From positions 28,559 through 92,558 of the forward strand of contig CAZJWJ010000002.1 in assembly GCA_964549495.1 (NCBI GenBank): a DNA stretch of 64,000 nucleotides, given 5' to 3'. The notes beneath the pieces were generated by a model. It did not search any database. It was not told where the DNA came from and worked only from the letters and a program-made list of their open reading frames with translations. Below, piece after piece: positions 7,252 to 33,946 of the stretch. Made by a program: the position numbers and the translations under genes. Each line of letters starts with the position of its first letter. The first letter of the stretch is position 1. The DNA comes from an uncultured Anaerolineales bacterium (lineage in GTDB: Bacteria > Chloroflexota > Anaerolineae > Epilineales > Epilineaceae).

Positions 7252-7785
7252 TCAGGGCTGGATGGGCCGTGGATCGACCACACCGTCGCGACGACAGCCC
7301 TCGGGCGGCGGATCGCTCCACATCCACCACCAGTAGCTGTCCGACTGCGCGAGGCGCCAGGTACCCGCCTCGCGGACCAGCTTCATCTCGAAGTCGCGGC
7401 TGCTCTGCCCGCTGTCGAAGAGCCCGCCGGTCCAGAAGCGCGTCTCACGCACCGTGACCAGGGCCACATCGCCCTCGACGCTGGAGGACTCGACCTGCAG
7501 CTCCAAATTGTCGAAATCGCGCAGCCAGCGGTTGCCCTCGCTGAGATCGTCCAGCAACACTTCGGGCGACTCGGGATAGCAGGGCAAGGACGGCGACAGA
7601 AGCGCCTGCGCGCGCTCCCAGTCCTCGCGCTGCAGCGCGAGGAGGTAGTTGTGAGCCGCCGCCTCGGGGCTGTCGTCCGAGCGGTACTCCGGTTCAGGCC
7701 GCAGGCGGGCCGCGGCGAAGGCCACGACCACCAGCACCAGGACGCCGGCTACGATGGCGGCGAGGAAACGATCGTTGGAAGACAT
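7252..7785 (-). CDS. Membrane-anchored NTF2-like hypothetical protein
   Basis: MSSNDRFLAAIVAGVLVLVVVAF anchor, SPEAAAHNYLLAL...DWERAQALLS and LVREAGTWRL pattern typical of NTF2-like lipoprotein folds. Confidence 0.65.
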   Translation of the reverse strand: MSSNDRFLAAIVAGVLVLVVVAFAAARLRPEPEYRSDDSPEAAAHNYLLALQREDWERAQALLSPSLPCYPESPEVLLDDLSEGNRWLRDFDNLELQVESSSVEGDVALVTVRETRFWTGGLFDSGQSSRDFEMKLVREAGTWRLAQSDSYWWWMWSDPPPEGCRRDGVVDPRPIQP

Positions 7786-8003
7786 GGGCTGCTTGCTCCC
7801 TGGTCGTGTGGTGACGAAACGAGCGGCGACGGCCACGACGTCGACCGTCGGATCGATACCGCCCGGCCAGTGTACATCGGCGATGCCGATGACGAAACCG
7901 CCAAGTGGCCAGTTTCCGGGCCGGTCGACGGGCGAGCCTCGAACCCGCGTTGGCGCAGGTGAGCGAGGTGACGGAGGTGCCGTCGATCGTCGGGCCGGCC
8001 ATC

Positions 8004-8012
8004 TGCTACAAT
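8004..8012 (+). promoter_or_regulatory. Extended -10 promoter (TGcTACAAT)
   Basis: TGCTACAAT 8 nt upstream of GTG 8021; no Shine-Dalgarno in between. Confidence 0.55.
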
Positions 8013-8020
8013 GCCGGCTC

Positions 8021-9508
8021 GTGACCACCCCCATCCGCCTCCTGGCGCTGGCCGTCCCGATCCTCTGCCTTCCCCTCGTGCTCGGGGTCTTATCGTCGGC
8101 GCGTCCGGTCCTCGCGCAGGATGCGAGCTGGCAGGAGCGCAGCGTCGGCTCCTTCGTCCTGGTCCATCCGCCAGGGACCGAAGCGGTGGTCGGGCATTAC
8201 GAGGCCCGGTCCGAGTCGATCTATCAGGCCTTGTCGACGGCTTTCGACGGCCAGCTCGAGCTGCCGGTCACCTTGCGGCTCTACGCGGACGACGATGCCT
8301 ATCTGCGGGCCAATCCGCTCTTCGTCGAACTGGGCGGGGTGCTGGCCCAGGCCCGGCGCGGGCGTCGCGAGCTGGCCATCTCTTTGCCTCGCGTCCTGGA
8401 GGGTGCGGAGCTCGGCGAGGCGGCAGTCGAGGCCGACACGCGGCGGCGGCTGGACAATGCCCTGCGCCTGGAGTTGGGTCAGCTCTTCGTGGCACGGCTG
8501 AGCGCGGAGCGGATGCCGGCCGGCTTCCGCAACGGCATCGCCGCCTACATGCAGCAGCCGGGTGGCGAGATGCAGGCCGGCGTCGCGCGCCTGCGCGAGG
8601 CGCGCGACGCCGGCCTGCTCATCGCCTGGACGGCCTTGAACGCGCCCGGCGCCGAATACCTCGACCCGCCCCTGGCCCAGCCGCAGAGCCTCTCGATCGC
8701 CCACTTCCTGGTCGAGCTGGAAGGTTTTGCCGGCCTGCGGGAACTCCTTCGGCAGAGCGCCACAAGCCAGGGCTGGCGCGAGGCGCTAGAGCGGAGCTAC
8801 GGCCGGCCACCCTCGGCAATCGAGCAGGCTTGGCTGGAGTGGCTGCCGCGCTATCTGGACGGCGGCTGGCGACAGCACGCGCTCTATCGGAGCGACCTGG
8901 CGCCGGCCGAAGCCCTGATGCGCCAGGGCCGCTTCGAAGCCGCCGTCGCCCAGCTGGCGGGCAGCATCTCGATGTTGGAGGGAACCGATGCCGAGGCCCT
9001 CGCCCCGGCGCGCCGAGCGCTGGCCCGGGCCGAGGCAGGACTCCAGGCGCGCCAGCAGGCCGAGCAGGCCGCAGAGGCCTTGGCCGACGGCCGCTACCGC
9101 GAGGCCCTCGACCTGGCCGCCGAGGCCCGCAGCCGCCTGGCCGAGGCCGGCGATGCGGCGGGCCGGGACTACGCGGCCGCCATCGCCGAGCGGGCCGCCG
9201 AAGGGGCCGAGGCGGAGGCCGAGCTGGCCCGAGCCGAGGCCCTCCCGCTCTGGCGCGCGGCCGAGGCGCGGCTGGCCGGATACCGCGCCATGCAGGGCCT
9301 GGCGCGGGTGGGCAATCAGGCCGCCGCCGACCGCGCCCGTGCCCTCGTCGAGCGCCTCGACCGGCGCCAGGCGCCCCTGGGTTGGCTGCTCTTGGGCGCC
9401 GGGCTCTGCCTGGTCGGATGGAGCATGCGCCAGCGCTGGGTGGCTGGCGATCCGCGCTCGCCGGCCCCTCGAGGCGAGGTCGGCGGCCCGCTCGGCGGCC
9501 GACCGTGA
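8021..9508 (+). CDS. Secreted/membrane-anchored peptidase-MA-like protein with degenerate zinc motif and helical TPR-like C-terminal half
   Basis: Signal peptide; LRLELGQ...MPAGFRNGIAAY aligns by eye with the HExxH...PxWFxEGxAxY pattern; C-terminal TM helix. Confidence 0.6.
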   Translation: MTTPIRLLALAVPILCLPLVLGVLSSARPVLAQDASWQERSVGSFVLVHPPGTEAVVGHYEARSESIYQALSTAFDGQLELPVTLRLYADDDAYLRANPLFVELGGVLAQARRGRRELAISLPRVLEGAELGEAAVEADTRRRLDNALRLELGQLFVARLSAERMPAGFRNGIAAYMQQPGGEMQAGVARLREARDAGLLIAWTALNAPGAEYLDPPLAQPQSLSIAHFLVELEGFAGLRELLRQSATSQGWREALERSYGRPPSAIEQAWLEWLPRYLDGGWRQHALYRSDLAPAEALMRQGRFEAAVAQLAGSISMLEGTDAEALAPARRALARAEAGLQARQQAEQAAEALADGRYREALDLAAEARSRLAEAGDAAGRDYAAAIAERAAEGAEAEAELARAEALPLWRAAEARLAGYRAMQGLARVGNQAAADRARALVERLDRRQAPLGWLLLGAGLCLVGWSMRQRWVAGDPRSPAPRGEVGGPLGGRP

Positions 9509-10719
9509 TCCACTTCCGACTGCGCTACGAGCGCCTCCGCGACGGGTTGGCGCGAGCCCGCCGGCGGCGGCGATGGCTGCGCGCCGCCTGGGTCGCCCTG
9601 CTCCTGCCCTTTGCCGGACTCTTGGCCCACGTGGCCTTCGGCCTGCTCCTGCGGCCCGGCCTGTGGCTGGCCGCCGCGCTCATCTGCGCCCTCCTCCTCG
9701 GCTTGCTGGGCGATCGCCGCGCCGCGCGCGCCGGGCTGGAGCGCGAACTCGATCGACGCTTCGGTCTGGACGATCTGCTGGTCACCGCCGTCGAGGTCGA
9801 TCGGCGCGGCCCGCGCGGCGGCATGGAGAGCCGTCTGCTGGATGATGCGGCCAGCGCGGTGGCCCGGCTGGGACGTCCCAGGCGCTTGGGCCGCGGCAGC
9901 GAGCAGCGCGAGTGGGAGATGCTGGCCGGCCTGGCCCTGATGCTGGCCGGCCTGTGGCTCCTGGCCGGAACCCTGGCCGGTCCGCCGCATGTCGAGCGCC
10001 TGCCCGGTCTGCCCTCGCCGGAGGGCCAGCTGGCTGGACCGGATGCCGAGGGCGGCGATCTGGACGGTGCCGGCATGGCCAGCGCGGCCGGCGCCCATTT
10101 GGCTTCGACGCTGGGTGACCACGCCGCGGCGCGCGAGATCGCACGCGCCCTGGCCTCCGGCGACCCGGCAGCGGCGGCCCGTGCGGCCCGCAGCCTGGCC
10201 GATCGTGCCGGCGGTTTGTCCGAGGCCGGCCGCCAGGCCCTGGGCGACGCCCTGGCCCGGGCCGCGCGCGAATTGAGCGGTCTGGATCCGGAGCTGGCCG
10301 AAGCGCTGGAGGCGGCGCGCCAGGCCCTGGACAGCGAGTCGGCCGAGGCGCGTGCCGCGGGGATCGAGGGATTGGCCGAGGCCATGGACGCCATGGCCCG
10401 GGAGGGGCCGCGGGCCACGCCGCCGCCGATGGCCGCCGAACTGCGCAGCCGACCGCCTTCCGACCTGCTGGCGCCCGATGCCGCGCGTTTGTCGCTGACC
10501 GCTTCGGGCCAGGACTCGGCCCCACGCGCTCGCGGCCGCTCCATCGAGGATGGGGAGGCGGGCGAGCGTCGGCTCGAGCCGACTCCGACCTCCGGCGACA
10601 TCGCGGCCGGCGGCCTGCAGGTCGGCCCGCTGGAGCTGGGCAGTGACCCCTTGCGCGTGCCCTGGGCTCAGCGCGACCTGGTCCGCGAATACTTCGATCC
10701 GCGGGGGCGCGCGCCATGA
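9505..10719 (+). CDS. Membrane-anchored helical protein of MoxR/VWA cluster
   Basis: GTGA overlap with upstream stop; N-terminal TMs, LDRRFGLDDLLVTAVE, C-terminal VPWAQRDLVREYF. Only the 3' part of the listed 902-aa ORF. Confidence 0.7.
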   Translation: MIHFRLRYERLRDGLARARRRRRWLRAAWVALLLPFAGLLAHVAFGLLLRPGLWLAAALICALLLGLLGDRRAARAGLERELDRRFGLDDLLVTAVEVDRRGPRGGMESRLLDDAASAVARLGRPRRLGRGSEQREWEMLAGLALMLAGLWLLAGTLAGPPHVERLPGLPSPEGQLAGPDAEGGDLDGAGMASAAGAHLASTLGDHAAAREIARALASGDPAAAARAARSLADRAGGLSEAGRQALGDALARAARELSGLDPELAEALEAARQALDSESAEARAAGIEGLAEAMDAMAREGPRATPPPMAAELRSRPPSDLLAPDAARLSLTASGQDSAPRARGRSIEDGEAGERRLEPTPTSGDIAAGGLQVGPLELGSDPLRVPWAQRDLVREYFDPRGRAP

Positions 10720-11645
10720 GTTGGTGGAGGCGGGAGGCCGCCGGCGAGCCGGATGCCAGCGCAGGCGGTGATCTGGCCTTCGACGAGGCCTTTCTCCGAC
10801 GCCTGGAACGCATGAGCCTGCGCCTGAAGCGGGTTTCGGAAGGTGTCGGGGGGCGGCCGGGCAGCCGGCGCATGCCAGCGGCCGATTTCATCGACCATCG
10901 GCCCTACAGTCCGGGGGACGATCAGCGTCACATCGACTGGAACGCGGCCGCCCGCCACGAGGAGGTCTTCGTCAAGGTCGGGCGGGTGCTGCAGTCGGCC
11001 GATCTGCAGCTGCTCTTGGATGCCAGCCCGAGCATGGCCGCCAGCGCGCGCAAGTGGCGCAGCGCGCGCCAGCTGGCCGCCGCCCTGAGCTGGATGTCGC
11101 TGGCGCGGGGCGACCGGGTCTCGTTGCACATCTTTCCCGACGGCCAGGACGCGGCACCCGCCGCTCCGCGGCGCGGTACGGCGCCCGGCCGCGAGATCCT
11201 GCGCCAGCTGGCCGGCCTCGAGCCGCGAGCCAGCGAGGCCACGGAGCTCGCGCCCTGTCTCGAGCGCATCGCCCGCGGCCGGCGCGGTGGCCTGGTGGTG
11301 GTCATCAGCGACCTCTGGCTGGTCGACGACCTCGATCGGGCCCTGGCGCGGCTGCCGGCTCCACGCTGGGAGCTGATGCTCCTGCAGCTGCTCGACCCGG
11401 CCGAGCTGCGCCCGGACCTGGACGGCCCAGTCGAGCTGATCGACAGCGAGTCCGGCCAAAGCCTGCGCCTGCAGGTCGACGCGGATCTGCGCCGCGCGTA
11501 CCGGCGGCAGTTGTTGGCCGGCCTGGAGGCCGTCCGGGCCAGCGCGCTGCGGCGCGGCGCCAGCCATGCCCTGCTGCCGGCCGACTGGCCCATCGAGCAG
11601 GCCGTCATCCCCTACCTGCAGCGCCGCGCGCTGCTGGAAGCCTGA
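10716..11645 (+). CDS. DUF58 domain protein (MoxR partner, VWA-like)
   Basis: DFIDHRPYSPGDDQRHIDWNAAAR, LLLDASPSM, VVISDLW; ATGA overlap. Confidence 0.9.
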   Translation: MSWWRREAAGEPDASAGGDLAFDEAFLRRLERMSLRLKRVSEGVGGRPGSRRMPAADFIDHRPYSPGDDQRHIDWNAAARHEEVFVKVGRVLQSADLQLLLDASPSMAASARKWRSARQLAAALSWMSLARGDRVSLHIFPDGQDAAPAAPRRGTAPGREILRQLAGLEPRASEATELAPCLERIARGRRGGLVVVISDLWLVDDLDRALARLPAPRWELMLLQLLDPAELRPDLDGPVELIDSESGQSLRLQVDADLRRAYRRQLLAGLEAVRASALRRGASHALLPADWPIEQAVIPYLQRRALLEA

Positions 11646-11667
11646 TCGCGCCCGGTTCGGTCCTTCG

Positions 11668-13275
11668 ATGAGCATCGGCAGCCCGCTGGGCGCGCTCCTG
11701 TTGCTCGGCCTGCCCCTCGTATTGTGGCTGCATCTGCGGCGGCGCCGGCCGCGTCGCATCCGGGTGCCCAGCCTGACGCCCTGGGCCCGGCTGGCCGCCC
11801 GAACCTTGCCCCGCCGGCGGCGCATCCCGCCCGGCCTCTTGCTCTGGCTCCACTTGGCTGCCGTGGCCGCGATCGGCCTGGCCGCGACCGACCCGCGCCT
11901 GCCGGGTGACGCGGCGCTCGCCCGCCACCGCGCGGTGGTTCTGGACGCCTCGGCCAGCATGGCGGCCGGTGAGCGCTGGGACGAGGCCACCGAGCGCGCC
12001 CGAAGCCTGCTCGACGCCACGCTCGGCGAGCGCACGCTGCTCGTCGCCGACGACGCCCCCAGGGTCCTGGTGGCCCGCGACCCCGACGGACGCGCCGCCC
12101 GCGCTGCCCTGACCGGCCTGGCGCCCAGCCCGAGCGCCGGCATTCGGCTCGACGAAGCCCTCGACCTGGCGCGGGCGGCGGCGGGCGAGGAGGCCGAGAT
12201 CGTGCTGATCTCCGATGGCGGCCTCCCGCTTCCGGACGCGGACGCGCCAGCGGCCCGGCTCGAGGTGGTCGGCGAAGCCATGGACAACCTGGCCATCTCG
12301 CGCGCCGCATTGCGCATCGCTGGCGGCCGGGCGAGCCTCTTCGCGCGGGTGGTCGACTTCGGGCAGACGCCCCGATCCACCGCGCTCCAGCTGCGCGCCG
12401 ACGAGCGCCTGCTCGAGTCCATCCCGCTCGATTGGGAGCGCGGCGGGATCCACGAAGCCGTCTGGCGCCTGCCGGCCGGCACGCGGCAGGTCGAGCTGGC
12501 GCTCGAGCCGGCCGACGCCTGGCCGGAGGACGACCGCCGCCAGCTCGAACTCCGCGCCGATCCGCGCCGGGTTCAGCTGGTCGGCCAGTCCGATCGGCTG
12601 GCCCGGGCCGTGGAGGCCATCCCCGAGCTGCGCCTGGATCGGCCCGGCCTGGCCGACTTCCGCACCGACGGCAGCCCGGATGTCAGCATCTTCGTCGGCG
12701 CCTTGCCCGACCGGCTCCCTCCAGGCGGCGTCCTGGTCGCCGCACCGGAGCCCGGCGGAGCGCTCGAGGTCGGCGCGGTCGAAGCCGGAGGGCCGGCCTC
12801 GAGCGTCGATCGCGTCGCCGACCACCCCCTGCTGGAGGGTCTGGACCTCTTGGGGACCCGCATCGGGGGCCTGCGGGACATCGAGGCTCCGCCCGGCGCC
12901 TCGATCCTGCTCGAGGCCGGCGGCCGGCCGGCCATCCTGAGCTGGAACCGCGCCGATGGGCGCCTCCTGGTCCTGGCCTTCGATCCCGAGGCGGCCGGAC
13001 TGCCCGATCGTCTGGCTTTTCCCCTGCTCGTCGCCCGTGCCGCAGCGTGGTTGGCGGCGCCGACCGAGCGGGCCGAGCCGACCGAGCGCCATGCGCCCGT
13101 CACCGAGCACGACCTGCGGACCCGCGTCGACTGGCCTCGGTCGCCCGCCGCATCCGGCGGCGAGGTCCTGCCAGCCGGCCGAGCCCTCTGGCCCGCCCTG
13201 GTCCTGCTGTCCATCCTTCTGGTCCTGGCCGAGGCGGCGCTGCGCGCGGGCTGGCTGCCGAGCCCGCCCCGATGA
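11668..13275 (+). CDS. BatA-type N-terminal domain plus VWA domain membrane protein
   Basis: LLLLGLPLVLWLHLRRRRPRRIRVPSL (BatA-like), VVLDASASM MIDAS, LISDG, C-terminal TM. Confidence 0.85.
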   Translation: MSIGSPLGALLLLGLPLVLWLHLRRRRPRRIRVPSLTPWARLAARTLPRRRRIPPGLLLWLHLAAVAAIGLAATDPRLPGDAALARHRAVVLDASASMAAGERWDEATERARSLLDATLGERTLLVADDAPRVLVARDPDGRAARAALTGLAPSPSAGIRLDEALDLARAAAGEEAEIVLISDGGLPLPDADAPAARLEVVGEAMDNLAISRAALRIAGGRASLFARVVDFGQTPRSTALQLRADERLLESIPLDWERGGIHEAVWRLPAGTRQVELALEPADAWPEDDRRQLELRADPRRVQLVGQSDRLARAVEAIPELRLDRPGLADFRTDGSPDVSIFVGALPDRLPPGGVLVAAPEPGGALEVGAVEAGGPASSVDRVADHPLLEGLDLLGTRIGGLRDIEAPPGASILLEAGGRPAILSWNRADGRLLVLAFDPEAAGLPDRLAFPLLVARAAAWLAAPTERAEPTERHAPVTEHDLRTRVDWPRSPAASGGEVLPAGRALWPALVLLSILLVLAEAALRAGWLPSPPR

Positions 13276-15857
13276 GCCTCGGCGCCTGGCGCCTGCTATC
13301 GGCCTGGCCGGAGTACCTCGGCTTGGCCCTCGTCCTGGCCCTGCTCGGCGCCTGGATGGAGCGGCGCATGGGCGGATCGCGCCGCGCGGCGGCGCAGCGC
13401 GGTCTGCTGTTGGCCGTCCTCTGTCTGGCCCTGGCCCGGCCGGTCCTGGACGGCGGCGGCGGCTTGCCGCCCTTGCTCCTGGTGGATCGTTCGGCCAGCG
13501 TCGACGCCGAGTCCCGCGAGGCGCTGCTGGCCGAAGCCGGGTCCGCCTTGGCCGACTTGCCGCGCCTGGACTTCGGCAGCTCCGACGACAGCCCCCTGGC
13601 CGCGGCGCTCGATCGAGCCGGCCGGGCCCTTCCGCAAGGGGGGCGGATCTTGCTCCTCTCCGACGGGCGTTGGACCGAGCCGGTGGACTCGGGGCTGTCG
13701 GAGGGCGAGCTTGTCGATGCCCGGGGCGTCCGAGGTCTGGATGGGCGCGGTCCGTCGAGTCGCTCCCCCATCGAGGTGGCGGCGGACATGGTCGGCGCCG
13801 GAATCCACATCGACGCGGTGGCCTTGCCTTCCGTCGGCGGGCGCGACGCGGCCGTCACCGGTATCGACCTGCCGCCCAGCTTCCGCGCCGGCGAGCGGGT
13901 CGACGTCCAGCTGCGGCTGGCCGCGAGCGAGTCGCTGGCGGCCGAGCTCGTCCTCTCCCGCCTGCCCGAGGATCCCGACGACGCAGCCTTGGAGTTGGCC
14001 CGCCGTTCGCTCCGCCTCGAGCCGGGCGAGACCCTGCTGCGACTGGATCTGCGCCCCGAGGCGGCCGGCCCCCTGCGCATCGAGGCCCGCCTGGAGGTCG
14101 AGGGCGACGTCCGAGCCGGCAACGACCGGCTGCAAGCGGCCGCCTGGGTCTCGCCGCCCATGCGGGTGCTGCTGGTGGGCGAAGGCACCGGCGTCATCCG
14201 GTTGGGCGATATCCTGACCGGGGCCGGAATGCCGGCCACCATCATGGCGCCCTCGCTCCTGCCGAGTCAGCTCAGCCGCCTGGAAGCCTGGGACGCGATG
14301 GTGCTGGCCGATGTGCCGGCGGCATCCTTGGGCGTCGACCAGCAGCAGGCGGTGGCCGCCTTCGCCTCGGATCTGGGCCGCGGCCTCCTCTTGACGGCCG
14401 GCCGGCAGAGCTTCCTGCCCGGCGGATGGGAGCACACGCCCCTGGCCGAGATCGCCCCGGTGCTGCTCGACCCGCCGGATCGCGCCAGCCGCGAGGCGGT
14501 GGCCCTGGTCTTCATGATCGACCAATCGGCCTCGATGGGCTCCATCGAGGGCCGGGGCGCCATCAGCAAGCTGGCCCTGGCCCGCGAGGCGGCGCTGCTG
14601 GCCGCCGAGGTCCTCGGACCGGGCGACCAGGTCGGCGTCGTCACCTACGACGATGCCGCCCGCTGGCTGCTGCCCCCGACCGAGGTCGGCGCGGGCCGCA
14701 GCCTGGCCGAGATCGAGGCCGCGCTGGCCGGCCTGGCCACCGGCGGCGGCACCCGCATCCTGGCGGCCCTCGAACTGGCCCTGCCGGCCTTGGCCACCGA
14801 CGTCGATTTGCCCACCCGCCACGCCGTCCTCCTGACCGATGGTCGCGATTTCAACACCGACAGCAGCCAGTACCTCGAAGTGGTGCGGCGCGCCCGGGAT
14901 CGGGACATCAGCCTGTCGACCATCGCCATCGGCAGCGACGCCGACCGCGATCTCCTGGCCCAATTGGCCCGCGCCGGCCGCGGCCGCTTCCACTGGGCGG
15001 CCGAGCCGGCCGATCTGCCCCGCCTGGCCGCCCAGGAAAGCGAGATCCTGCGCGCCCAATCCCAGCAGACCGGCCGCTTCCAGCCGGCGCCCCCGCGCGC
15101 CGCCGCCTCGCCGCTCCTGGCGGGCATCGAGCTGGACGCGCTGCCGCCCGTCGAGGGCTACCTGGCGGTCCGCCCGCGGCCGGGCGCCGAGGTGGCGCTC
15201 GAGCTGCCGGCCGGCGACCCGCTGCTGGCCACCTGGCAGCTGGGCTTGGGCCGCGTGGTGGCCTGGATGAGCGACCTCGGTGAAGCCTGGGCCGTGGACT
15301 GGCCCGATCGCCCGGCCGGCCGCGATCTGTGGCTTCGAAGCCTGCGCTATGCATCCCGCCCGCCGGACGCCGGGCCGCCGGGTTTGAGCATCGAGCGCGC
15401 TCCCGGCTCGGCCCGCATCGAGATCGACCTCTTGACCTCCGGCGGCCAGCCCATCGACCTGGCCGACGCCCGGCTGGTCATGAGCACCACGCCCGCGATC
15501 CTGCACCAGCTGCCCCAGACCGCGCCGGGCCGCTACGCCGCCACCATCCCCCTCCCGCCGACGCCCGGGGCCTGGCCGGCCGCCATCCAGGTCGAGTCGC
15601 CGCAGACCGTCGCCACCCTGCCCCTGGCGCTGTCCCGCCCCTACCCGCCCGAGCTGGTTCCCGTCCCCGCCGATCGGGGCCAGCAAGCGCTGGAGGCCCT
15701 CGTCGCGCTCACGTCCGGCCGGCGCTACACCAGCCTCCCCAGCTTCGACGATCTCGCCGACGGGTCGCGACCGCGCATTCCGCTCTGGCCCTACCTGCTG
15801 GCCATCGCGCTGGCCCTGCTCCTGCTGGAGGTCGCCCGCATCACCCGCTCCCGCTGA
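13272..15857 (+). CDS. Double-VWA protein with Ig-like and glutamine-amidotransferase-like domains
   Basis: LLVDRSASV/LLSDG and FMIDQSASM/LLTDG MIDAS motifs, WDAMVLADVPAASL GATase1-like segment, LWPYLLAIAL C-terminal TM; ATGA overlap. Confidence 0.85.
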   Translation: MSLGAWRLLSAWPEYLGLALVLALLGAWMERRMGGSRRAAAQRGLLLAVLCLALARPVLDGGGGLPPLLLVDRSASVDAESREALLAEAGSALADLPRLDFGSSDDSPLAAALDRAGRALPQGGRILLLSDGRWTEPVDSGLSEGELVDARGVRGLDGRGPSSRSPIEVAADMVGAGIHIDAVALPSVGGRDAAVTGIDLPPSFRAGERVDVQLRLAASESLAAELVLSRLPEDPDDAALELARRSLRLEPGETLLRLDLRPEAAGPLRIEARLEVEGDVRAGNDRLQAAAWVSPPMRVLLVGEGTGVIRLGDILTGAGMPATIMAPSLLPSQLSRLEAWDAMVLADVPAASLGVDQQQAVAAFASDLGRGLLLTAGRQSFLPGGWEHTPLAEIAPVLLDPPDRASREAVALVFMIDQSASMGSIEGRGAISKLALAREAALLAAEVLGPGDQVGVVTYDDAARWLLPPTEVGAGRSLAEIEAALAGLATGGGTRILAALELALPALATDVDLPTRHAVLLTDGRDFNTDSSQYLEVVRRARDRDISLSTIAIGSDADRDLLAQLARAGRGRFHWAAEPADLPRLAAQESEILRAQSQQTGRFQPAPPRAAASPLLAGIELDALPPVEGYLAVRPRPGAEVALELPAGDPLLATWQLGLGRVVAWMSDLGEAWAVDWPDRPAGRDLWLRSLRYASRPPDAGPPGLSIERAPGSARIEIDLLTSGGQPIDLADARLVMSTTPAILHQLPQTAPGRYAATIPLPPTPGAWPAAIQVESPQTVATLPLALSRPYPPELVPVPADRGQQALEALVALTSGRRYTSLPSFDDLADGSRPRIPLWPYLLAIALALLLLEVARITRSR

Positions 15858-15910
15858 GGTGAAGGCTCCGAGAGGAGTGCGACAGCCAACCGAAGTCGGC
15901 CTGCGTTCGA

Positions 15911-15938
15911 TTGCCCGGCCCTACCTTCCCGCTACAAT
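15911..15938 (+). promoter_or_regulatory. sigma70-like promoter TTGCCC-N16-TACAAT
   Basis: -35 at 15911-15916, -10 at 15933-15938; predicted start site coincides with the 5' arm of the hairpin element. Confidence 0.6.
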
Positions 15939-15941
15939 CCC

Positions 15942-16107
15942 TAGTACTCTGTCAAGGAGATGCTTGCGGGCTCGAGCACCGCTGCGTCCGCTGCTGCGGC
16001 CCGCTGCTCCTCGGCAATGGCGCTGCCATTCCCTCGTCACATCGAACCACATCAGCGGCGCTTCGGCGCTCGAGCTACCCGCAAGCATCTCCCTGACAGA
16101 GTACTGG
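15942..16107. ncRNA. ~165-nt rod-shaped structured element; 6S-RNA-like ncRNA candidate (alternative: MITE)
   Basis: Arms TAGTACTCTGTCAAGGAGATGCTTGCGGGCTCGAGC (15942-15977) and GCTCGAGCTACCCGCAAGCATCTCCCTGACAGAGTACTG (16068-16106) are near-perfect complements; inner stems CCGCTG/CAGCGG and AATGGC/GCCATT. Confidence 0.5.
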
Positions 16108-16209
16108 TACACCGCCGCTGTGAATCTTGGGGGTAGCGAGATCGCCGAAGCGCCATGCAGCCCCGGATTCACGACCCCGTCCCGGCCTCGACCACTCCGG
16201 AGCCCTGCC

Positions 16210-17238
<1,029 letters not shown>

Positions 17239-17473: not shown

Positions 17474-20287
17474 ATGTCCACGATCACGCGCCGCCTTTCC
17501 CTGAGCCTAGTTCTCCTCTTGACCACCTTCACCGCTGGAGATCGATCCGGCCACGCGATGCCAGCGGATGAGGCTGGCGACCTGCTCGAAGCCCTCGAGG
17601 CATCGCCCGAACTCGACATGGAGACCGCGATCGCCCGACCCGATGCCAAGTCGGGGTCGCGCATCGGCGATCCGCTCGCGACCGATGTTCCCGCAGCCAA
17701 GGTCTTCGCATTGGGATCGGGAGCGGATTCGCTCCGCAGGATCGAGGAAGGCGCCGGCTTCTCCGCCGAGGCGGTCCCTGGCACGCTTCCCACCCTGAAA
17801 GGCTCGGGCGCCGGCGCTGCGCTCGCCGCATCCGGGCTGCAAGACCATGGCGATGGTCCGCAGTCCCTGCTGCGTCTGCTGGAGGTCACCTGCCCGCCGG
17901 AGTCGATCGACCTGGCCGGCGGCGCCGCGCTCGAAGGCATTCTCGATGCCGGCGACTGCCGCCTGCCCCAGTTCCTGGGCGAGGATACGGATCACGCGCT
18001 GGCCGACAGCTACCGATTCCGGGTGCCGGAGCGCAGCCGCGTGAGCATCGACCATGAGTCGAGTGACTTCGCGCTGGGCGTGGTGCTCTTGGGCGGCCAG
18101 GGGCTCATCCTGATCGACGCGCCCCTGGGCGGTGGCGGCCAGCTCGGCGGCGTCGCTCCGATCCTGCCGCCGGGCGACTACTTCCTCTTCGTCACCTCCG
18201 GCGAGGGCGACAGTAGTGCCAGCGGAGCCTACCGCCTGAACGCGAGCATGTCGGCCCAGGCGCCGCCGGCGCCCTGCACCGCGAGCCCGCTCGTGCCGGG
18301 CGAGACGACCGGGACCACCGACCCGGCCGACTGCCGCTTCTTCGACTACGTGCCGGGCCTCACCCTGCAGTCGCGCACGGATGCCTACGCGCTGGAGATG
18401 GACGCGTCCGGGCGGCTTTCCCTGGGCGTCACGTCGGGCGACTTCTTCCCGGCGGTAGCGGTGGCCTCGAATGGCCGCCTGGTCGACTTCGCCGACGGGG
18501 CCGGGCCCGGGGTGGCGCTCGACATCGCCTTGCCGGCCGGCGCCTATCAGGTGCTGGTCTTCTCCCTGAGCCCGGATACGGGCGCCTACCGGCTGACCAC
18601 CGAGGTCCAGCCCGCGGGCGATGGACGCTGCGAGCCGGAGCCGGCCCTGATCGACGAGGAGATGTCGGGCAGCCTGGCCGAGGGCGACTGCCAGATGGCC
18701 TGGATTGGCGGCGGCGGCGATCAATCCTGGGTGGATCTGTATGCCGTGGTGGTCCCGCAGTTCCTGGATACCTGGAGCATCAGCTTGCAAGCCGACGGCT
18801 TCCACCCGGCGATGCGCTTCTTGGACCTGCAGTTGAATCCCGTCCTGCAGGGCGTCGAGAGCCCGGAGGGATCGCGCATCGACCTGCGCATCGAGAGCGT
18901 CGCGGCCAGCACCTACATCCTGGCGGTCGAGTCCGCCGGACCCGGGATGAGCGAGGGGGATTACGAGCTCGAGGTCGACCTGATTCCGGTGGCCGAGCCG
19001 GTCTGCACGGTGGAGGCGCTGGCGCCAAACGGCAATGCCTCGGGCAGCCTGAGCGACACCGACTGCTACCTGGCCAACAGCTACGGTCAGATCGATACCG
19101 GCTCGCAGATCAGCGATCTCGACGCCAGGCTCGACCAGTACCGGGTGGAGGTCGATCGGCGAGGCCGGCTGAGCGCGAACCTGGGCTCGGCGGAAGTCGA
19201 CATGGCCCTGGTCTTCTACGATGCCGCGGTGACCTACCCCACCATCTACGAGGATCCGGCCAGCATGGACGCCAGCGGATCGGTGATCGTGCAGCCGGGC
19301 ACCTACATCGTCCTGGTCAGCTCGCTGACGCCCGATCTGGGCGACTACCAGCTGCAGCTGGGCTTCGAGCCCCAAGCTGCGCCCGACTGCGGCCCGACGC
19401 CGCTGGGCTTCGGCGCGCCGATGGACGGCGCGCTCACCGAGGGCGACTGCTACTTCGGGGACATCCTGGACGGCGACTTCCTGCAGCGCCGGGCCGACGC
19501 TTACCGGATCAGCCTTCCGGAGCGCGGCCGATTGACGCTGGAGATGTCCTCCGACGAGATCGATGCCTACCTGGAGCTCTATCCCGCCGACGGCGAGGGA
19601 TTGCTCGACTTCGGGCGCGACATCGTTCCGGGCTTCGACCTGGATGCCGCCATCGAGATCCAGCTGCCCGCGGGCGATTACCTGCTGGTGGCCTCCAGCG
19701 ACATCGGCATCGAGTCCGGGAGCTATCGGGTCGAGGCCGACTTCGAAGCCCTGACGGCCGACTGCTCGGCGGCGGACTTGGCCGTGGACGAGACGCGCGA
19801 GGGCAGCCTGACGGAGGAGAGCTGCCGGACCTCCGATCTGCCCGGCGGCGGCTCTCGGGGCGTGGCGACCGACGTCTACCGGCTGATCGTGCCGCAGCTG
19901 GGCCGGCTGGAGATCGAGATGAACAGCGAAGATCCCGCCGGCGGGGTCGACCCGGCGCTCTTCCTCTACAGCAGCGACTGGCAGCTATTGGCCAGCAACG
20001 ACGATCTGGTGTCCGGCATCCTCTTCGACGCCTACCTGCCGCTGGAGATCATCACCGGCGCCTACTACCTGGTGGCGGCGACCAGCACCGGTCTGACCGG
20101 TGGCTACGAGCTGGTGACCAGCTTCGAGCCGGCGGACTACGAGTTCGTCCCGTCGACGCCCGGCACGCCGCGCCCGACGGCCACCGGCGGGCCCATCGAG
20201 CCGACGGCCACGCCGCTGCCGCCCACGACCGAGACGCCGGCGGGACCCGGCGGGGAGATCTACCTGCCGGTGCTGCGCAAGGACTGA
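17474..20287 (+). CDS. Large secreted protein with six tandem PPC-like beta-sandwich modules, PT linker and YLP tail
   Basis: AAGGAG RBS, signal peptide, six ~120-aa repeats each with C...GxLxxxDC...D.Y...G.Y; ends GEIYLPVLRKD. Confidence 0.8.
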   Translation: MSTITRRLSLSLVLLLTTFTAGDRSGHAMPADEAGDLLEALEASPELDMETAIARPDAKSGSRIGDPLATDVPAAKVFALGSGADSLRRIEEGAGFSAEAVPGTLPTLKGSGAGAALAASGLQDHGDGPQSLLRLLEVTCPPESIDLAGGAALEGILDAGDCRLPQFLGEDTDHALADSYRFRVPERSRVSIDHESSDFALGVVLLGGQGLILIDAPLGGGGQLGGVAPILPPGDYFLFVTSGEGDSSASGAYRLNASMSAQAPPAPCTASPLVPGETTGTTDPADCRFFDYVPGLTLQSRTDAYALEMDASGRLSLGVTSGDFFPAVAVASNGRLVDFADGAGPGVALDIALPAGAYQVLVFSLSPDTGAYRLTTEVQPAGDGRCEPEPALIDEEMSGSLAEGDCQMAWIGGGGDQSWVDLYAVVVPQFLDTWSISLQADGFHPAMRFLDLQLNPVLQGVESPEGSRIDLRIESVAASTYILAVESAGPGMSEGDYELEVDLIPVAEPVCTVEALAPNGNASGSLSDTDCYLANSYGQIDTGSQISDLDARLDQYRVEVDRRGRLSANLGSAEVDMALVFYDAAVTYPTIYEDPASMDASGSVIVQPGTYIVLVSSLTPDLGDYQLQLGFEPQAAPDCGPTPLGFGAPMDGALTEGDCYFGDILDGDFLQRRADAYRISLPERGRLTLEMSSDEIDAYLELYPADGEGLLDFGRDIVPGFDLDAAIEIQLPAGDYLLVASSDIGIESGSYRVEADFEALTADCSAADLAVDETREGSLTEESCRTSDLPGGGSRGVATDVYRLIVPQLGRLEIEMNSEDPAGGVDPALFLYSSDWQLLASNDDLVSGILFDAYLPLEIITGAYYLVAATSTGLTGGYELVTSFEPADYEFVPSTPGTPRPTATGGPIEPTATPLPPTTETPAGPGGEIYLPVLRKD

Positions 20288-28675: not shown

Positions 28676-28862
28676 TCACATGTCCTTCGGCTCGGTACCC
28701 GATCCCCTTCGGGAGGTCGCACCGACGCGGCGCGATCTCGTAGGGCAGGCGAGGGGCTCGGGACCCGGCGGCCGGCTCGGAGGCTGGAAAGACGTCTCCA
28801 TACCGGCCGAGCACTCCGCGTCGAGATCTCGACGCGACATGCCCGGTGAACTGCGGGAGGGA

Positions 28863-31515: not shown

Positions 31516-32769
31516 TCAGCCTTCTTCGAGCGCGGCGGCGATCGCCTCGTCGCGGTGCAGCCGGCGCGTGGGGATGCGGTTGGCCGCCAGCGCGGCCGCC
31601 AGCGCATCGTTGCTGCCGGCCGGGCCGAAGCTGTTGGCGTCGACCAGGACCACCAGGCTGTGCACACCGCGCAGCTTCAGGGCGCGCAAGGCCTCCACCC
31701 AGCGCAGCGAGGTGGTGGCGGTGATGACCACCAGGGTGGCATGCCGCTTGAGCTCGTGGCTCTCGGCGGAGAGCACCTCCGAGAGACCCGAGCGGCCCGC
31801 GGCCCGCAGGACGGCCAGGTGGGTGAGGATCTTGGAGATCTGGCGGTCGCCGCGATCGGGCTGGGCGACGATCCGGCGCTGCCCGTGGGCGATCAAGCCC
31901 ACGCTCTTGCCGTCCTCCAGGAAATGCCGTGCCAGGCTGGCCGCCGCCACCACGGCATACTCCTCGGTGCTGGGCAGGACCTCCGGCAGGTCCTCGTCCA
32001 CCCAGGGCATGGCCGAGCCGGGCTCCGCCTCGCGATCCGCCTCGGCCGCCGCCACGTGGGCGTCCCGATCCAAATCGAGCAGGATCCAGTAGTCGGCGAT
32101 GGGGTCCAGCTCGAACTCGCGGGTGTAGAGCTGGTTGCGACGGGCCGAGGTCGGCCAGTGGATGCGCTTGAAGTCATCCCCCGGCCGGTAGCCGCGGACG
32201 CCGCGCACGTTGGTGGTGGCCAGCTCGCTGCGCCTGCGGATGACCTGACCGCCCGAGAGATAGCCGGTGGGTAGGTCCAGGGCGCGCAAGGGCAGGCTGC
32301 GCGGGTAGACCACGAAGGGAGCGGTCTGACCGTACTTGCGCTCGAGCCGGAAGATCCCCAAGGGATCGCCGCCGGCCACCGTCATCGGCCCCAGGCGGAA
32401 CATGCCGCGCCGGCGGCAGACCGTGCGCACCGTCCAGCGCCGCGTGCGGCCCGGAGCCATGGTCGACAGCACGCGGCTGGCGTGATGTCCCGGCAGATCG
32501 CTGTGGTCGCGCACCTCCAGAAAGAGCTTGGGCAGCCAGCCGCGATTGGTCAGGCCGAAGCTCTCCTCGGCCAGTCCGCCCACCTCGGCCCGGCTGGCCC
32601 GGGTCCGGCGCGAGATCTCGATCCAGCGCACCGAGCTCCAGGTGAGCAGGGCGGCCACCGCCAGCAAGCTCGAGAGGGCCCAGGTGAGCCGCCAGATCAA
32701 GGGATGGCCGAAGAGCAATGCGATGGCGGCGACCACCAGCGTGACACCGACCAGAAAGCGACCGTGCAT
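31516..32769 (-). CDS. DUF58 domain protein with N-terminal TMs
   Basis: DPLGIFR, VRGYRPGDDFKRIHWPTSAR, LYTREFE. Confidence 0.9.
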   Translation of the reverse strand: MHGRFLVGVTLVVAAIALLFGHPLIWRLTWALSSLLAVAALLTWSSVRWIEISRRTRASRAEVGGLAEESFGLTNRGWLPKLFLEVRDHSDLPGHHASRVLSTMAPGRTRRWTVRTVCRRRGMFRLGPMTVAGGDPLGIFRLERKYGQTAPFVVYPRSLPLRALDLPTGYLSGGQVIRRRSELATTNVRGVRGYRPGDDFKRIHWPTSARRNQLYTREFELDPIADYWILLDLDRDAHVAAAEADREAEPGSAMPWVDEDLPEVLPSTEEYAVVAAASLARHFLEDGKSVGLIAHGQRRIVAQPDRGDRQISKILTHLAVLRAAGRSGLSEVLSAESHELKRHATLVVITATTSLRWVEALRALKLRGVHSLVVLVDANSFGPAGSNDALAAALAANRIPTRRLHRDEAIAAALEEG

Positions 32770-32770
32770 G

Positions 32771-33718
<948 letters not shown>

Positions 33719-33946
33719 GCGGTCTCTCTCTCGTTTTGCTAGGGCGGTGCGGTCGCTCATGGAAAGTCGGTGACTTGGGGGCGAGCTAACGATAGCATTC
33801 GCGGATCGGCTGCCCATCCACCCGTGGCCCGCGCCCCATCGATGGCTCCCGGTAGCCGAGCCTTACGAGCCGAGCCCTGATCAAAACGAAGGGATCCGGC
33901 TCGGGGTTCAGACGCCTGCGCAGTCCTTGTGGTATCGTTGCCGACC

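Follow-up and report, generated by a model that had tools for sequence, protein, structure and literature searches.

A palindromic, probably MITE-like insertion directly behind the moxR promoter of an uncultured Chloroflexota bacterium

The window analysed here (the whole stretch of 64,000 nucleotides from an uncultured Anaerolineales bacterium) contains a single long near-perfect inverted repeat. The long hairpin that it forms, at 15941-16107, is a real feature of the sequence and lies directly behind the promoter-like site of a moxR gene. Together with a degenerate third arm, the hairpin makes up exactly the ~219 nt of extra DNA that this locus carries when compared with its closest relatives. 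The feature is probably a MITE-like or palindromic-repeat insertion that would be transcribed together with moxR and form a stem-loop at the 5' terminus of its mRNA, a reading given moderate confidence; it is not a stand-alone RNA gene. The element is of an ordinary kind, and occurs only in this Chloroflexota lineage among those compared.

The palindrome is imperfect, ~167 nt in length, and the promoter-like site ends 2 nt upstream of it. The terminal arms, 28 nt each, are 96% complementary, and their pairing reaches across 15941-15977 and 16068-16107, interrupted by a single A.C mismatch and a bulge of 3 nt. The minimum-energy fold also features the inner stems and an apical AATGGC-GCT-GCCATT hairpin, so that the arms, stems and apical hairpin described in the initial annotation were all recovered in place. 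Alignment of the left half (A1) with the complement of the right half (A2) shows 81% identity over 77 aligned nt, the outer 27 nt matching at 26 positions. The plus-strand RNA (15940-16108) folds at -108.4 kcal/mol, compared with a shuffle mean of -59.8 (z -11.4), and the minus-strand RNA at -132.3 kcal/mol (z -15.4); on either strand, 0 of 200 shuffles was as good. Folding with DNA energy parameters agrees with the RNA folds (-59.4 and -74.0). The plus-strand fold has 64 base pairs, with internal loops of only 1-3 nt apart from a symmetric 6x6 loop near the apex, while the minus-strand fold, with 71 base pairs, is almost fully paired.

Table 1. Coordinates of the insert, its parts and the neighbouring genes in the 64-kb window.
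Feature	Position	Strand	Details
DUF58 gene	10716-11645		locus upstream of element
BatA/VWA gene	11566-13275		locus upstream of element
VWA-domain gene, last before the interval	~13272-15857 (start approximate)	+	Pfam VWA_2, VWA, VWA_3, GATase1_like; GC3 0.92
Ancestral moxR promoter-like site	15911-15938	+	-35 TTGCCC 15911-15916, 16-nt spacer, -10 TACAAT 15933-15938
Lineage-specific extra DNA, ~219 nt	15939-16157 (boundaries within a few nt)	none	by comparison with closest relatives
Imperfect palindrome (hairpin)	15941-16107	none	folds, half-to-half alignment
Left half A1	15941-16022		part of hairpin
Left terminal inverted repeat	15943-15970		AGTACTCTGTCAAGGAGATGCTTGCGGG; inverted-repeat search
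Apical loop	16023-16025		part of hairpin
Right half A2	16026-16107		part of hairpin
Right terminal inverted repeat	16078-16105		CCCGCAAGCATCTCCCTGACAGAGTACT; one mismatch vs left arm
Degenerate third arm A3	16107-16154	none	partial inverted copy of right half
Ancestral moxR leader	16158-16209	+	conserved GCCTCGACCAC motif; GGAG Shine-Dalgarno 16199-16202; aligns to L007 and L008 leaders
moxR, AAA_3 ATPase, 342 aa, GTG start	16210-17238	+	Pfam AAA_3 1.6e-59 and AAA_lid_2; GC3 0.92
PPC-domain protein gene	17474-20287		downstream of moxR

The hairpin is followed by a partial third arm, A3, which was absent from the initial annotation. Over its 48 nt, A3 is 73% complementary to positions 16057-16104 of the right arm (35/48 matches to the reverse complement), and its Smith-Waterman score against the right-half complement is 22; among 3,180 other windows, the null scores average 8.4 and do not exceed 17. 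The insert as a whole thus consists of three arms in alternating orientation. The motif GTAC forms the start of every arm, that of A3 lying 2 nt past the end of A2 and of the hairpin. The similarity between the arms is a mosaic: the outer 27 nt of A2 match A1, as given above, and its inner 22 nt match A3. Correspondingly, the inner part of A3, GTAGC..CGCCGAAGCGCC, matches the complement of A2 at 19 of 22 positions, the outer part matches it poorly, and A3 and A1 are barely alike (alignment score 7). A2 can also be folded with A3 into a hairpin of -55.6 kcal/mol (z -4.9). The presence of an adjacent, decayed arm indicates repeated or nested events within one sequence family. Dimers and trimers whose units alternate in orientation are on record for REP-type and MITE-type elements (PMC3733652). 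The mosaic arms fit either nested or adjacent insertions of one repeat family, with decay and conversion, or in-situ fold-back duplications. An origin of the insert from a tRNA or from a tandem repeat was ruled out. The window contains no tRNA.

The genes that adjoin the element are all on the plus strand. No sigma-70-like site other than TTGCCC-16-TACAAT occurs on the two strands of 15500-16600 (0.1 in shuffles), which bears out the sigma-70 promoter proposed in the initial annotation. The last gene upstream, encoding a VWA-domain protein, has syntenic counterparts of 826-865 aa in the relatives, and the order DUF58, BatA, VWA, MoxR is common to all five related lineages wherever upstream DNA is present. 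The MoxR-VWA module looks like a conserved six-gene unit, of which moxR is the last gene and has its own promoter. Two conserved Pfam-less genes (~500 and ~400 aa) are located 5' of the DUF58 gene (7655-10719 in the window, 1990-4703 in L006), both here and in all relatives with enough flank, and a divergently transcribed DUF5671/DUF3842 gene lies upstream of these. A second MoxR gene (AAA_3, 6.8e-65) is paired with a DUF58 gene at 31516-33862 on the minus strand, so that the genome holds at least two MoxR-DUF58 modules within 20 kb. The remaining window is chromosomal housekeeping DNA, including rho, glpX, recG, coaD, fabD/fabG, rlmN and hpf.

Open reading frames of 459 aa (15859-17238), 103 aa (15924-16232, minus strand) and 61 aa (15911-16096) run across the element. 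None of them matches a Pfam family, and they are not coding, since their GC3 is 0.63-0.67 as against 0.92 in the flanking genes; the element is non-coding, and the crossing reading frames are artefacts of high GC content. The possibility that the in-frame ORF from 15859 represents an N-terminal extension of MoxR by 117 aa was rejected on its GC3 of 0.65 and on the N-termini of the homologues.

The orthologous interval was compared in the loci (L006 to L017) of the five closest MoxR clusters, all of them Chloroflexota with MoxR proteins 73-82% identical to that of the window. By its MoxR homologues, the host belongs to Chloroflexota, close to Anaerolineae and Ardenticatenia, and the nearest non-self protein is only 82% identical. 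The gap between the VWA gene and moxR is 352 nt in the window; it is 132 nt in L007 and L008 (MoxR identity 82%), 131 nt in L006 (80%), 134 nt in L012-L014 (75%) and 67 nt in L009-L011 (73%), and in L015-L017 (76%) the two genes overlap by 4 nt. A promoter just 5' of moxR is kept in four of the five related lineages. In L006, L007 and L008 it reads TTGCAC-16-TACAAT and is followed by CAGCCC, the GCCTCGACCAC motif, GGGAG and a GTG start codon; in L009, L012 and L013 an extended -10 sequence, TGATACGAT, lies upstream of moxR. The promoters in L006-L009, L012 and L013 indicate that moxR has an ancestral promoter and short leader of its own.

In the window, these conserved anchors are split by the extra DNA. 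The -10 box is followed by CC, the insert, and then CAGCCCC, the GCCTCGACCAC motif, GGAG and GTG, whereas in the relatives TACAAT runs directly into CAGCCC. Excision of 15939-16157 or of 15940-16158 is among the best restorations of the alignment to L007. None of L006, L007, L008, L009, L012, L013, L015 and L016 has the element in its syntenic interval, so that the insert is present here and absent from the orthologous site in five lineages, these being different genera or species rather than strains. The comparison of the VWA-moxR interval, which the initial annotation had singled out as informative, therefore gave an empty site in every relative examined, which speaks for an insertion and against a conserved non-coding RNA. 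The insertion could be old, as the nearest relative's MoxR is only 82% identical.

Two of the relatives contain other additional sequences at this locus. In L012 (9870-9965) and L013 (2257-2350), the VWA-moxR interval includes, 5' of the promoter, ~65 nt that L009 is without. This segment features a ~24-bp stem with a perfect 16-nt arm pair (-75.7 kcal/mol, z -2.9), and has two collinear words, GCTTGCGGGC and GCGCCGAAG, in common with the element of the window. Its alignment score with the element is 19, a value reached by 19 of 1,802 null windows (p ~0.01, for a post hoc choice of segment). It could terminate transcription of the VWA gene, or be distantly related to the element's repeat, a kinship that is unproven. 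The same two loci also carry genes for a NACHT-domain protein and an S8 peptidase between moxR and the PPC-domain gene (L012 11084-15045, L013 3471-7432), which the window, L006 and L007 are without.

The insert has several of the features expected of a MITE. Its terminal inverted repeats extend over ~37 nt, it is small and non-coding (167 nt, or 219 nt with the third arm), and it is present here and absent at the orthologous sites of five syntenic lineages. The initial annotation had entertained a miniature inverted-repeat element inserted at the moxR start site, and of the readings considered this is the best supported, owing to the empty orthologous site; it is unproven in that no second copy was found and that the CTAG/CTGG duplication at the ends is imperfect. 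The palindromic AGTACT/GTAC termini are moreover inseparable from an extension of the repeat itself.

Dispersed copies, which the initial annotation took as a mark of a MITE, were sought in the window itself and in sequence collections that exclude the source genome. There is no second copy in the 64-kb window, either for the 28-mer at up to 3 mismatches or by sensitive blastn, and in ~103 kb of the relatives' loci neither a similar sequence nor a similar long hairpin was detected. Scans with exact 21-mers of the arms returned 1 match in the genome collection, 4 in the metagenome collection and 0 in the viral collection; these are chance matches only, each to a single arm, on contigs of 51-57% GC and with no extension past 21-22 nt. 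A blastn search of plasmids and phages gave no match. A concatenated six-frame translation of the element was also compared with 5.8 billion proteins, as copies might have been miscalled as ORFs, and gave nothing at E≤10; a phmmer search of the 103-aa minus-strand ORF against 1.84 billion representatives returned two matches, both tandem-repeat translation artefacts. The absence of other copies is weak evidence, because the source genome is outside the searched collections and the lineage is poorly sampled. Among prokaryotic MITE families, copy numbers down to one per genome are documented (PMC10969869). As to a parent element, the 64-kb window contains no transposase, integrase or RAYT gene, no other occurrence of the 12-nt terminus at ≤1 mismatch, and no IS with matching terminal repeats.

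The hairpin had also been considered as a 6S-like RNA. At the gathering score, Rfam 15 gives no family match in the whole 64-kb window, and at E≤10 the region 15700-16350 shows only three chance matches (mir-718, MIR1437 and a trypanosomatid snoRNA), all with E>1 and none of them 6S; the search of RF00013 and all other families thus came out empty. The central bubble is the defining feature of the 6S fold. The element resembles 6S RNA in its size (~165 nt) and rod-like shape, but has no match to the RF00013 covariance model and no large central bubble, and it is not conserved as a single-copy sequence in the relatives, where the sequence is absent from the site. That it encodes a 6S RNA, or a predicted 6S-like RNA that binds RNA polymerase, has a negligible probability. 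A known riboswitch or cis-regulatory leader was likewise rejected, as there is no Rfam match and the relatives hold no homologous sequence for covariation.

The suggestion of a novel stand-alone RNA fared no better, as the sequence is not conserved, there is no minus-strand promoter-like site in 15500-16600, and no T-run follows the hairpin on either strand that would make it an intrinsic terminator. It had been noted that plus-strand A.C mismatches become G.U pairs on the minus strand, and this was taken to favour an almost fully paired minus-strand RNA. The direction of the asymmetry was confirmed, with six such oppositions instead of the five that had been counted, and one G.U the other way. 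The 6:1 split is weak, however (p ~0.13, two-sided binomial), and it is the reason why the minus strand folds 24 kcal/mol better than the plus strand. The asymmetry could reflect strand-biased mutation, or descent from a master copy that matters in single-stranded form. With neighbouring genes all on the plus strand, and neither promoter nor terminator on the minus strand, a small minus-strand RNA antisense to the moxR leader is highly improbable in spite of its better fold.

The main rival of a MITE-like insertion is the formation of the palindrome in place, where an ~80-nt unit was acquired once and then underwent fold-back or template-switch inverted duplications with gene conversion, so that no dispersed family exists. 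Three adjacent arms in alternating orientation, the mosaic of similarity (26/27 between the outer parts of A1 and A2, 19/22 between the inner parts of A2 and A3), the lack of other copies and the lack of a clear target-site duplication would all be accounted for. The mosaic is predicted equally by nested insertions of a repeat family, however, and no source of the ~80-nt unit was detected in the ancestral interval, the window or the relatives, so that at least one import of foreign DNA is still needed; an origin in place is accordingly unlikely, although it deserves more credit than any of the remaining alternatives. One of these is a REP/BIME-type cluster, in which a dimer and a singleton of a GTAG-tagged palindromic unit would have been mobilised by a RAYT tyrosine transposase. 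REP/BIME dimers and trimers consist of units 1-5 bp apart in alternating orientation that can fold into one large stem-loop, much like the arrangement seen here, and the genome of Thermomicrobium roseum, one of the Chloroflexi, contains GTAG REP families (PMC3733652). A3 and the complement of A2 share a GTAG at matching positions (GGGTAGC). REPs are, however, imperfect palindromes of 20-40 bp with a terminal GTAG/CGTC tag (PMC3733652), whereas the unit here is ~80 nt, the stem after GTAG is only 3-4 bp, and A1 is without the tag, which leaves GTAG in two of the three arms. The window moreover contains no RAYT gene and no further repetition of the inner motif, and membership of the REP class was rejected; a REP/BIME origin is improbable.

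Other readings concern the role of the structure or its authenticity. As A2 can pair with either A1 (-108 kcal/mol) or A3 (-55.6 kcal/mol, z -4.9) directly behind a promoter, the insert could be read as a lineage-specific cis-regulatory leader in which the alternative pairings are predicted to form a switch for moxR. Such a switch is implausible given that A1:A2 forms first during transcription and is ~50 kcal/mol more stable; it is followed by no terminator, the ribosome-binding site is not clearly sequestered, and the absence of an Rfam match and of conservation in any relative also makes it a doubtful, low-ranking candidate. Little credence, too, is given to the broader idea that the three-arm structure at the moxR start is a recently domesticated, lineage-specific RNA device, predicted to act as a 5'-terminal dsRNA stability or processing module or as a minus-strand antisense RNA, and to adjust the amount of MoxR ATPase independently of the VWA and DUF58 partners in its operon. 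Finally, multiple-displacement amplification and long-read adapter artefacts can both create palindromes, and the element might be a chimeric inverted duplication of this kind. Its arms, however, are imperfect (81% overall), with a bulge and a distinct apical region, the flanks are not duplicated, and the element fits neatly between the promoter and the leader beside a decayed third arm, so that an assembly or amplification artefact is very hard to credit.

Under the preferred reading of a MITE-like insertion, the ~219-bp non-coding palindrome, with its two ~80-nt inverted arms and degenerate partial third arm, most likely goes back to a small mobile element, non-autonomous and of the MITE or palindromic-repeat type, which would have inserted 2 bp past the -10 box of a moxR promoter already in place. 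Since the -35 and -10 boxes are intact, transcription should start at ~15943-15946, presumably at A15943, G15944 or A15946, 5-8 nt past the -10 box and within the left arm; the initial annotation, which also placed the start site in the 5' arm, agrees with this promoter geometry. The element would then represent the first ~165 nt of the moxR mRNA and form a 64-bp imperfect stem-loop at its very 5' end. A fold of 15945-16230 leaves the hairpin intact (-141.8 kcal/mol).

In bacterial mRNA decay, a base-paired 5' end hinders RNases that depend on the 5' end, and duplexes longer than ~20 bp are substrates of RNase III. The base-paired 5' end may thus shield the moxR mRNA from 5'-end-dependent decay, and by analogy with the Correia elements of Neisseria the long duplex is a potential RNase III substrate. 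The consequence for moxR would most likely be post-transcriptional. It has been reported that prokaryotic MITEs act on mRNA via RNase III or RNase E (PMC10969869, PMC2649163).

Among described systems, Correia elements (CREE; PMC2649163, PMC10969869) offer a close parallel: they are ~100-200 bp, non-coding, with long terminal inverted repeats that form a hairpin in mRNA, they are intergenic and adjoin a promoter or gene start, and one lineage has them where others are empty at the same site. Their expected action, on mRNA processing and stability via RNase III, may by analogy extend to the element described here. Unlike CREE-type MITEs, it has no similarity to any described family, no TA target duplication and no sign of more than one copy; its host is an uncultured Chloroflexota, and the promoter predates the element instead of being supplied by it. 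ERIC, RUP and BOX elements are also imperfect palindromes of ~100-170 bp that are transcribed within mRNAs and can alter transcript stability (PMC10969869, PMC2229807), but they form families of tens to hundreds of copies, in contrast with the single documented copy here, and have no sequence relationship to it.

If the element is indeed MITE-like, a poorly sampled lineage of uncultured Chloroflexota has yielded a further small palindromic repeat, as yet unnamed, and with it a natural example of an insertion between a -10 box and the start site that spares the promoter and converts a short leader into one headed by a 64-bp hairpin. It opens no new class of system, though it is a possible test case for the effects of a 5'-terminal duplex on the fate of mRNAs in non-model bacteria. 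The 459-aa, 103-aa and 61-aa ORFs across the element should not be annotated as genes.

Two smaller inverted repeats were noted elsewhere in the window. One, at 8564-8626, has 29-nt arms (90%) and a 5-nt loop, and lies within a 617-aa ORF (7655-9508) without a Pfam match. The other is a 40-nt palindrome at 28807-28846 with overlapping 25-nt arms (84%), situated in the gap between two minus-strand genes, one for an M23 peptidase and the other rho, where it may serve as a terminator or regulatory site.
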